From sequence record OQ626344: a stretch of DNA of 64,000 bases; one strand, written 5' to 3'. The notes below the pieces were generated by a model, which was not told the origin of the DNA, did no database searches, and worked only from the letters and a program-made list of their open reading frames with translations. This stretch comes from Escherichia phage S127 BCL3. The first letter of the stretch is position 1. Every line of letters starts with the position of its first letter. A program made the position numbers and the translations under genes. This document shows, piece by piece, positions 55,738 to 56,952 of this stretch.

Positions 55738-56092
55738 GATTTTTATCCTCTCTGTTAATTAGTGTGGTGTTGTTCACCTTGCGAGGATAAGAATAACAGA
55801 ACTATCCGAGCTGTCAACCATTAGTTAGAATTATTTTTTGGGCAGAATTCTCCAGCCGTCGCCCCTGCCAGGTTAACCATCATTTTTTCGTACTCTTCTT
55901 TATGTTCCAACGCTCCCGCCATAGCCTTTTCAACCAGGGCGGTAGCCTCAGCGTCATTAATCGCTACATTTCCAGGGGGATCATATTACTGTACCTCCTC
56001 TTCAGTTGTTGCCTACCCTATAGCATAGCCCTGCCAGGCTGGCCCCGCCAGGTTGCAACGGTTAGCGCATCAGGTTAGAATTTTTTTGAAAA

Positions 56093-56350
56093 GTGTTGAC
56101 AGCGGCCCCGCCAGGTGGCACAATATACCTATCGAAAGGACGGCAGGCACCGGTGACGGGGGAGACAACCACCGGGGATGGGCGCTGCATAAAATGAGAA
56201 CGGTTATCATTATCATTTAAAAATTTATGCAAAAAATCCTTGCTTTCTTTGTCCTGTGTGATACTATAATAACAAGCCGGGGCAACAGGGGCCGGGAGAC
56301 AATCACCGGGGGTGCCCGTTATTCTGCAAACGAGAATGATTATCATTCAA
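56093..56350 (+). repeat. two paralogous ~60-bp elements, each preceded by a promoter-like motif (candidate small RNAs or iterons)
   Basis: GGGAGACAACCACCGGGG..GAGAACGGTTATCATT (56157-56217) and GGGAGACAATCACCGGGG..GAGAATGATTATCATT (56292-56350); TTGACA at 56093, TATAAT at 56265. Confidence 0.4.
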
Positions 56351-56475
56351 AATTCTAAATGAGAACTTTTCGCATTTCATAAATTTAGTTAGCATGCTAA
56401 TTACCTACCGTGACAATTCTATATAAAATAATACCTCCTTAAATATTTCCATATACAAATTTTAAAAATCCATTT

Positions 56476-56641
56476 CCGAAAACGAAAAATCGATTTCGTC
56501 CCCAAAAATTTCAGGTCGAGCTCCGGAACGATTTCCAGAAAATCTGATTCAGAAAACGAAAAACAGATCGAGTACTAAGAAATTTATCGAGAAAAATTTT
56601 CAGAAAATTCAATCTTTGAAACGAAAAACAGATCGAGTACT
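56476..56641. repeat. AT-rich direct repeats (GAAAACGAAAAACAGATCGAGTACT x2 plus a partial copy)
   Basis: Copies at about 56476 (partial), 56550 and 56616; AAATCCATTTT also recurs three times to 56920. Confidence 0.6.
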
Positions 56642-56879
56642 GAGAGAGATGTATCAAAACCTACTGAGAATAATGGGCTTATTGTTATAAAAGGTCAAAG
56701 GTAAGCTGGGAAAGTTCTGGTAGAAGGGTGAGGGTATGTGCGGAAAATTTGGAATAGTAACTTAAAGTACGGTGCGAACGATAGAATGAGCAGCACATCT
56801 TATCGCGCCTGTCTTGAAAAATCCATTTTAGTTTTCGATCCATTTTCTGATTTTCTAAGAATTTTAAAATATCCGGCTA

Positions 56880-56923
56880 GGTAAAATATCAAAAGGAGGA
56901 AATCCATTTTAGAAATCCTCCTT
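56880..56923 (-). terminator. rho-independent terminator (minus strand)
   Basis: AAGGAGGA..TCCTCCTT 8-bp stem followed on minus strand by TTGATATTTTAC. Confidence 0.55.
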
Positions 56924-56952
56924 ATGCTTGATGTGCCAGGGATTTTCAAGTA

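Follow-up and report, generated by a model that had tools for sequence, protein, structure and literature searches.

Here we describe a non-coding region at positions 55990-56950 of a 64,000-nt stretch of DNA from Escherichia phage S127 BCL3 (sequence record OQ626344; the whole stretch is called the window below), in which predicted promoters are followed by G-rich leader elements, by palindromes that match the operator of the host iron regulator Fur, and by AT-rich direct repeats. This order of promoter, leader, Fur box and repeat recurs across phage genera, and we read the region as a conserved non-coding control module and not as a pair of RNA genes. Over 1.2 kb around it, identity is 97.9% to Escherichia phage B9-1 and 88.9% to phage rV5; these two belong to the genus Vequintavirus, and the window phage is itself an rV5-like Vequintavirus; 121 phage records match the 1.2-kb query.

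Layout of the non-coding region

The region is embedded in a long series of small minus-strand early genes (Table 1), and in the bin 56001-57000 the sign of both GC and AT skew is reversed relative to the adjoining bins. The rV5 record annotates three small hypothetical open reading frames (ORFs) here and zero plus-strand features, while the rV5 paper lists 33 sigma-70-type promoters and a "non-coding" box (PMC3606486). An earlier note on this DNA, made from the letters alone, had listed a set of elements, and these are all present within 2-3 nt of the positions it gave, the count of one AT-rich motif (AAATCCATTTT) aside. Its two "paralogous ~60-bp elements" are real and lie where they were placed, but each consists of two parts, a 5' leader element and a 3' palindrome of the Fur-box type, and further copies exist outside the coordinates that it named.

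Two predicted sigma-70 promoters in tandem, P1 and P2, are directed rightward, opposing the flanking minus-strand genes, with predicted starts near 56131 and near 56277, respectively. The TTGACA that had been placed at 56093 is found at 56096-56101, within the P1 match; the motif CCCCGCCAGG occupies the P1 spacer (56104-56120), and P1 is identical in rV5 and in the related record L064. For P2, the reported TATAAT was recovered at 56265-56270. This promoter has the same position in six other genera, and among Vequintavirus genomes both P1 and P2 are invariant or nearly so. At the six Vequintavirinae and Phapecoctavirus loci compared, the module promoters have TTGCAA, TTGCTT or TTGATC as -35 and TATATT, TATTCT or TATTAT as -10 hexamers, and in the six other genera the spacer of 16-17 nt is fixed in length and variable in sequence. 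That the hexamers and the spacer length stay constant and the spacer letters do not argues for genuine plus-strand promoters. A weak promoter-like site on the minus strand (56380-56352), flanked by Fur boxes 2a and 2b, was also considered; a Fur-regulated minus-strand promoter would be plausible in the window phage, but its -10 hexamer is not kept in other genera and we rejected it.

The earlier finding of no credible ORF holds: small ORFs on either strand match relatives only briefly, at one nucleotide-conserved stretch, whereas a real flanking gene has a full-length match (1e-32). The region is non-coding; where public records place hypothetical proteins or tRNAs on it, these annotations appear spurious. 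Short hypothetical coding sequences run across the module in several other records.

Table 1. Features of the non-coding region and related sites elsewhere in the window
Feature	Position	Strand	Details
Left neighbour, small gene	ending 55821	-	
CCYGCCAGG motif copy, GC-rich (GCCCCTGCCAGGTTAAC)	55861..55877	+	within small minus-strand gene
Two neighbouring CCYGCCAGG copies	56027..56057	+	second adjoins the P0 -35 hexamer
P0, promoter-like site	56053..56081	+	TTGCAA-17-TAGAAT (9/12)
P1, predicted promoter	56096..56124	+	TTGACA-17-CACAAT with upstream TG (10/12 sigma-70 match)
Leader element 1	56142..56188	+	core GGGAGACAACCACCGG at 56160-56177; complementary arms GGCAGGCACCG and UGGGCGCUGC
Fur box 1 (putative), AATGAGAACGGTTATCATT	56193..56217		26.3-27.0 bits; weaker overlapping site 6 bases on
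P2, predicted promoter	56240..56270	+	TTGCTT-16-TACTAT with upstream TG, or TATAAT at 56265-56270; read from sequence
Leader element 2	56278..56318	+	core GGGAGACAATCACCGG at 56294-56311 between arms GGGCA and UGCCC
Fur box 2a (putative), AACGAGAATGATTATCATT	56329..56347		27.4-27.9 bits
Fur box 2b (putative), AATGAGAACTTTTCGCATT	56358..56376		17.5-20.3 bits; right half degenerate
Palindrome TAGTTAGCATGCTAATTA	56386..56403		inverted-repeat search
Three direct repeats, ~65-74 bp	56465..56645	+	candidate iteron array; cores GAAAACGAAAAATCGATTTCG (degenerate, ~56478), GAAAACGAAAAACAGATCGAGTACT (56552-56576) and TGAAACGAAAAACAGATCGAGTACT (56617-56641)
Intrinsic terminator of the convergent gene 57282..56953	56880..56926	-	right border of the region
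Right neighbour, gene	57282..56953	-	
Third promoter-leader unit	46877..47020	-	no Fur box
Terminator of third unit	47020-46991	-	
First promoter of third unit	47010-46983	-	TTGTAA-16-TATACT
Leader element 3	46974-46928	-	core at 46954-46937
Second promoter of third unit	46905-46877	-	TTGACA-17-TAACAT; CCTGCCAGG in spacer; then gene
Second Fur-box-like cluster	44117..44269		matrix scan; inside 2.5-kb gene-free region 43100-45660; sites at 44117 (20.2-22.7 bits), 44135 (weak), 44233 (21.3-22.8 bits) and 44251 (18.5-21.2 bits)

Palindromes of the Fur-box type

The sequence GAGAAYGRTTATCATT forms a 19-bp palindrome that is the counterpart of the operator recognised by host Fur, and the 3' parts of the two elements, GAGAACGGTTATCATT (56196) and GAGAATGATTATCATT (56332), are halves of such palindromes. 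Judged by sequence comparison, their identity as Fur boxes is well supported. The site at 56196-56214 agrees with the classical Fur consensus GATAATGATAATCATTATC at 16/19 positions (0.02 expected by chance). The consensus of the phage palindromes, AATGAGAATnATTCTCATT, has the 7-1-7 form TGAGAATnATTCTCA, which differs from the Fur consensus TGATAATnATTATCA at one symmetric position; the window sites match the phage 7-1-7 consensus at 11-12/14 positions, many phage sites have a perfect Fur half on one side, and phage 4MG carries a perfect site, TGATAATGATTATCA, that matches the Fur 7-1-7 consensus at 14/14. The 19-bp unit of the phage sites, of 9-1-9 form, also agrees with the 9-1-9 unit of the published M9 model of Fur binding (PMC2189734).

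A further comparison was made from the phage side. A weight matrix built from 25 phage palindromes only was scanned on two 49-kb stretches of the E. coli K-12 genome. Between 595000 and 644000, all six best matches lay between the divergent gene pairs fepB-entC, fepA-fes and fepD-entS, whose promoters are under Fur control; together these three intergenic regions make up 726 bp of the 49 kb. Between 145000 and 194000, the top match, TATAATAATCATTCTCGTT, is found 54 nt before the start codon of fhuA, and Fur box 2a agrees with the fhuA operator at 16/19 positions; the second match there (17.3 bits, map-rpsB intergenic) is unexplained. When the window was in turn scored with a matrix made from relatives only, its six sites reached 17.5-27.9 bits, against a maximum of 16.3 bits in 50 shuffles.

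These six strong sites (>=17.5 bits) are confined to two non-coding clusters, 56193-56376 and 44117-44269, each shorter than 200 bp, and in the other 75 kb of B9-1, whose genome is near-identical, no site exceeds 11 bits and the leader core does not recur. Positional skew of the same type is a genomic signature of CtrA-box clusters in phages of Alphaproteobacteria (PMC9437464). Boxes 2a and 2b are exactly 29 bp apart. Other spacings also occur, namely a 6-bp overlapping pair (56193/56199) and 18-bp pairs (44117/44135 and 44233/44251), the latter a multiple of six; the second cluster has no associated leader. It lies where plus- and minus-strand gene blocks converge on a gene-free stretch of 2.5 kb (43100-45660) that also contains CTGTTTACGC-like repeats (about five), CCATGCCATTCGTTTGCAT twice and CCTGAAGAG four times, and the GenBank records of several relatives begin at about window position 44108.

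In distant BLAST comparisons the Fur-box part is the portion that survives in remote relatives. Mydovirus, Phapecoctavirus, Certrevirus, Seunavirus and a Serratia phage have 2-4 palindromes in a row at a spacing of exactly 29 bp, and all five keep the order of promoter, leader, Fur boxes and GATCGAG repeats. Over four Vequintavirinae genera and a Phapecoctavirus, the number of Fur boxes in this order is 1-4, and three repeats of ~65 bp follow. An Aeromonas Plateaulakevirus has the promoter, boxes at 28-bp spacing and the repeats, without the leader core and with different upstream sequence. The sequence of Fur box 2a, or AATGAGAATGATTATCATT, is found in six other genera. Within the genus, 56100-56400 (90-100% identity in 50-nt bins) and 56450-56600 are the best-conserved stretches. 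For the palindrome at 56386..56403, the matching 16-mer in the records L064 and L106 is a perfect palindrome, AATTAGCATGCTAATT.

The Fur-box signature recurs in Vequintavirinae, Stephanstirmvirinae, Plateaulakevirus and Demerecviridae. In 45 kb of phage T5 (L138, AY587007), the best three matches (31.7, 26.8 and 25.2 bits) are the annotated palindromes G, I and E, and together with copies of direct repeat C they form a group of the same Fur-box-like 19-mers at 9473-9631, just left of nick 1 and of the injection-stop region. Yersinia phage phiR2-01 (L137) has at least eight sites at 1097-1320, beside a perfect DnaA box. In T5 the sites lie in the terminal repeat beside DnaA boxes, without the GGGAGACAA leader or the GATCGAG repeat.

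Leader element, AT-rich repeats and surroundings

The leader element is G-rich, has the core GGGAGACAAYCACCGG and lies just downstream of a conserved sigma-70 promoter. The paralogous copies that had been reported at 56157 and 56292 are borne out by the cores GGGAGACAAYCACCGGGG at 56160-56177 and 56294-56311 (0.04 expected by chance), and a third copy of the core, which had gone unnoticed, lies on the minus strand at 46937-46954 within a promoter-leader unit of its own. This third locus is kept in Phapecoctavirus, Certrevirus and Salmonella phages, and in CR3 and SSBI34 a Fur box follows the leader there after ~35 nt. At the six Vequintavirinae and Phapecoctavirus loci the layout is constant: ~8 nt after the -10 hexamer comes a G-rich segment that contains the core GGAGACAAWCACC, then GGTGCCYGYYAT. 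The arms on either side of the core are paired in 77% of cells, against 36-48% for slid-partner controls, with many G.U pairs, whose frequency favours the G-rich strand as the RNA sense; in most single-sequence folds the core lies in the apical loop of this putative hairpin.

Searching IMG/VR with the core gave 121 matches, of which more than 100 were one unrelated conserved prophage gene and only four were rV5-like loci; the combined pattern of leader and Fur box was found in four viral contigs only. In one IMG/VR contig of 1217 nt (L091), a terminator and an extended -10 promoter precede GGGAGACAATCACCGG, and a second promoter and a gene come after it; the third copy in the window has the same layout, and the contig shows no other similarity to the window, so that the core may be more widespread. 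In records from other genera (L123 ~1385-1470, L124 ~1335-1420, L125 ~1025-1110), another leader, also conserved but GC-rich (GCCACyCCACGGCGaAAAGGCGGGGCTAAC...), comes after the first promoter, TTGACR...TATACT; it has no Rfam match, and two TGTAAAGA repeats precede the Fur-linked promoter.

Homologous sites have been annotated as tRNA genes: in Klebsiella phage vB_Kpn_K45PH128C2 (L122, OY978796.1), a tRNA-Met and a tRNA-Ile are placed over the Fur-box/leader region at 1420-1573. These are probably annotation errors, since neither ARAGORN nor Rfam detects a tRNA, and the tRNA-Met was rejected as a candidate; ARAGORN finds no tRNA in the window region either.

To the right of the Fur boxes lies an AT-rich stretch (GC 0.36-0.37, against ~0.43 in the window) with three direct repeats, each unit ending in GATCGAG(T/A)AC (GATCGAGTAC). 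The repeat that had been described as present twice plus a partial copy was recovered as the 25-mer GAAAACGAAAAACAGATCGAGTACT, exact at 56552, with two mismatches at 56617 (0 expected) and partial at ~56478. Less of the second AT-rich motif remains: AAATCCATTTT, said to occur three times, is exact twice (56819 and 56900), the third copy (56466) has one mismatch, and its 7 matches across the window do not exceed chance (3.4 expected; 9 of 100 shuffles reach 7). Positions 56450-56600 are 96-100% conserved in the genus, whereas 56600-56800 are variable. Repeats of the form (T)GATCGAG(A/T)ACC follow the Fur boxes in 4MG (three ~65-bp units), Mydovirus, phiTE and Aeromonas phage 2L372X, and the same repeats are present in Seunavirus, Mydovirus, Certrevirus and an Aeromonas phage. 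Three regularly spaced direct repeats beside AT-rich DNA, as in an iteron-type origin, are present here; GATC shows no enrichment. The pseudo-ToxI of phiTE (PMC3475682), a non-coding repeat locus in a relative, was considered as a parallel and set aside, the window repeats (19-bp palindrome, 29-bp period) looking unlike the 36-nt ToxI unit as described.

At the right border, the strong minus-strand terminator that had been noted is confirmed as a hairpin, AAGGAGGA...TCCTCCTT, with a U-rich tail (-24.3 kcal/mol, z = -3.25). On the plus strand at 56879-56888, AGGTAAAATA is similar to TggTAaAAtA, the late promoter motif proposed in the rV5 paper (PMC3606486). Repeats of the AAATATCA type occur around 56879-56888, at the matching place in 4MG and phiTE, and at 43620-44020.

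At the left side, the recurring motifs seen near TTGACA are reproduced, with CCCCGCCAGGT exact at 56043 and 56106 and CCCTGCCAGG at 55863 and 56029. They belong to a CCYGCCAGG motif with four copies within 55861-56120; allowing up to one mismatch, the window has 12 matches against 3.7 expected, a number that 0 of 100 shuffles reach. Such motifs lie within or beside the spacers of P0, P1 and the promoter at 46905-46877. Near 55995 the window is ~10 nt shorter than rV5 and L064, and at ~56026 it is without 48 nt that both of these contain, with further CCWGG-type copies.

The neighbouring small genes belong to PHROG families of unknown function only. In other genera a small plus-strand gene lies upstream of the module, likewise of families of unknown function, and it has no homolog in the window. 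On the minus strand at 55821-55990, the reading frame of a small gene that matches phrog_21957 (56 aa) is broken: compared with rV5 it lacks one A/T (GGAAAT in place of GGAAAAT), so that the frame opened by the ATG behind a strong GAGGAGG ribosome-binding site closes after 6 codons, and only a 33-aa ORF is left. This break may be a sequencing error, a pseudogene or a misplaced start. Elsewhere in the window (1844-1942, minus strand), ARAGORN calls a 99-nt tRNA of undetermined type with a four-base anticodon (atcc) within a tRNA cluster, for which the Rfam tRNA model gives only 35.5 bits. Between 16 and 18 "Campylobacter phage" records (host Campylobacter jejuni) match the rV5-type region at up to ~98% identity, and their labels or hosts look doubtful.

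Possible functions and their implications

We read the region as a Fur-gated non-coding control region, possibly a replication origin, and put the probability of this reading at roughly 55%. Transcripts from P1 and P2 would each begin with the G-rich leader and its core, and dimers of iron-loaded Fur would bind across the boxes. Relative to the predicted starts these lie at about +55 to +120 (centres at about +62 to +71 and beyond), so that Fur would not occlude RNA polymerase at P1 or P2; this distance favours a roadblock or architectural role, in which Fur would gate whether non-coding transcription from the two promoters reaches the repeat array. The array would most plausibly bind a phage protein, for example as a transcription-activated origin, and a process of the phage would thereby be coupled to host iron status. 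As the phage DNA multiplies, the boxes would also titrate Fur as a by-product. The layout, with tandem promoters leading into AT-rich repeat DNA, resembles that of a transcription-activated or iteron-type origin, and the iteron-type origin that had been suggested earlier is plausible to the extent that three direct repeats of ~65-74 bp are present and recur in other genera. In rV5 itself, the authors could not locate the origin by skew analysis, the skew changing only at transcription switches (PMC3606486).

Several observations weigh against this reading. The boxes do not cover the -35/-10 hexamers of P1 and P2, as they would in classical Fur repression. The main box spacing is 29 bp, whereas Fur clusters in E. 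coli are spaced by 3 or 6 bp (PMC2189734), and boxes 1 and 2a are near-identical across genera, a degree of conservation that Fur binding by itself would not require. The third leader copy has no Fur box, which shows that leader and boxes can occur apart. On the RNA side, covariation of the leader arms (a hand-chosen stem) does not rise above shuffles, 342-436 of 500 of which score as high; RNAalifold, applied to 12 paralogs and orthologs, gives no consensus fold and three pairs only; and folding z-scores are weak, from -2.9 to +0.6. As for the origin, 55990-56950 contains no match to the DnaA (TTWTNCACA) or IHF (WATCAANNNNTTR) consensus, and no obvious initiator gene was identified nearby.

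Among the alternatives, the one we take most seriously, although we think it unlikely, is that the boxes regulate nothing in cis and act as a sponge: with ~7 high-affinity sites per genome and hundreds of genome copies, the replicated sites would titrate Fur and derepress the host Fur regulon, including iron uptake and nrdHIEF, to the benefit of phage DNA synthesis. The sites do come close to the consensus and group in non-coding DNA at a distance from promoter hexamers, the second cluster has no leader, and similar arrays occur in unrelated T5-like phages; that multicopy Fur boxes derepress Fur targets is the principle of the Fur titration assay (PMC2189734). Yet a sponge needs neither a fixed box position after promoter and leader nor a fixed 29-bp spacing across genera, and, Fur being an abundant protein, ~7 sites per genome may titrate too little. 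Less probable again are two further explanations. If the palindromes were operators of a phage-encoded dimeric DNA-binding protein, such as an origin or repressor protein, and their likeness to Fur boxes incidental, the near-invariance of box 2a across genera, the constant adjacency of the boxes to phage-specific repeats and the 29-bp phasing, atypical of Fur, would all be accounted for. Against this, the best matches of the phage-only matrix in each of two independent stretches of E. coli fall in known Fur-regulated promoters, no phage protein emerged as a candidate, and the same motif is found in the unrelated Demerecviridae, which argues for a shared host factor.

The other is the proposal of the earlier note, two small non-coding RNA genes, which would act in trans and which we likewise consider improbable, by hardly a shade less than such a phage protein. 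Conserved promoters directly upstream, the excess of arm pairing over the slid controls with its many G.U pairs and the apical position of the core speak for it. The proposal is nevertheless not sustained: the Rfam scan that the note had recommended matched no family (thresholds: gathering scores for the window, E = 10 for 55700-57100 and E = 1 for the loci of three relatives), no plus-strand terminator-like site follows either leader/Fur element, and the fold and covariation results above lend it nothing. Moreover, each element has as its 3' half a palindrome in the DNA, and the G/A mismatch conserved in it would interrupt a stem in RNA. The elements are conserved in relatives, as that note would have it, but the covariation it looked for does not exceed that of shuffles. 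That the region encodes small proteins, namely rV5 ORF198 and ORF199 (window ORF 56346..56062, 94 aa), is very improbable in spite of the hypothetical proteins annotated here in rV5 and other records: the ATG of 56346..56062 lies inside Fur box 2a without an upstream ribosome-binding site, ORFs on both strands match the same conserved stretch over at most 50 aa, identity is 90-100% in 50-nt bins across 56100-56400, and the plus-strand ORF has no PHROG family match.

Set beside known systems, the proposed Fur-gated control region has several partial counterparts. The boxes of the E. coli Fur regulon (fhuA, fepA-fes, fepB-entC) carry the same palindrome (phage AATGAGAATnATTCTCATT against GATAATGATAATCATTATC/TGATAATnATTATCA), whereas the sites in this virulent phage lie at +55 to +120 and not over promoters, are spaced by 29 bp in the main cluster and have no iron-related gene near them. 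A Fur box is present on temperate phage DNA at the stx1 promoter. Temperate lambdoid phages also carry one upstream of sitABCD (PMC6969025). These are Fur operators on phage DNA, as here, but they control a cargo gene from its own promoter in the lysogen, whereas the present ones are located where a strictly lytic phage has no genes. The primary origin of T7 has tandem promoters followed by an AT-rich region, the lambda origin has iterons, and T4 has oriF and oriG. The window region resembles these in its tandem promoters running into an AT-rich stretch with regular direct repeats; it differs in that no initiator, DnaA box or replication start has been identified.

Further parallels are host global-regulator sites in the control regions of virulent phages. 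Spo0A boxes in phi29 repress early transcription and block the initiation of replication (PMC2731898), and CtrA-box clusters occupy a large intergenic region of Alphaproteobacteria phages (PMC9437464). Like the Fur boxes, the Spo0A (phi29/Nf) and CtrA boxes lie in non-coding control regions, are conserved across phage lineages and stand beside early promoters, in phi29 also beside origins; here the regulator would be Fur, the hosts are Enterobacterales and Aeromonas, and binding and regulation, demonstrated in those systems, are inferred from sequence. Full-text searches yielded no report of Fur sites in rV5- or T5-like virulent phages, though an older report in a subscription journal is possible, and a preprint on T5 injection stop (10.1101/866236) does not mention Fur. 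What appears to be new is a variant of the host-regulator site cluster, Fur arrays in a lytic phage, together with an uncharacterised leader element.

In the gut, enteric hosts normally live under iron limitation, for which Fur serves as the master sensor. The conserved Fur sites suggest that a lytic phage reads or manipulates host iron status. More tentatively, and with distinctly less confidence than for the window region itself, we suggest that large virulent phages of several unrelated families (rV5-, phAPEC8- and T5-like phages of Enterobacterales, and an Aeromonas phage) might share Fur-operator arrays, placed in their chief untranslated control regions, as an iron-status checkpoint or titration target. 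Such a checkpoint could act on origin-proximal non-coding transcription or on DNA entry; the GGGAGACAAYCACCGG leader might, on the same tentative footing, be a new promoter-proximal RNA element working with the arrays; and by analogy the whole could conceivably be an iron-dependent counterpart of the "lytic deferment" associated with Spo0A and CtrA.

For the phages concerned, the region is a candidate for the origin that the rV5 authors could not define. The matches in T5 and phiR2-01 point to a possible significance beyond the rV5 group, and reading them as Fur boxes offers a possible explanation of the unexplained palindromes near the T5 injection-stop signal. If the reading is correct, replication or expression of rV5-, phAPEC8- and T5-like phages, which are used in typing and therapy, may depend on the iron status of the host; alternatively, these phages may rewire the Fur regulon, which includes the receptors FhuA and FepA.

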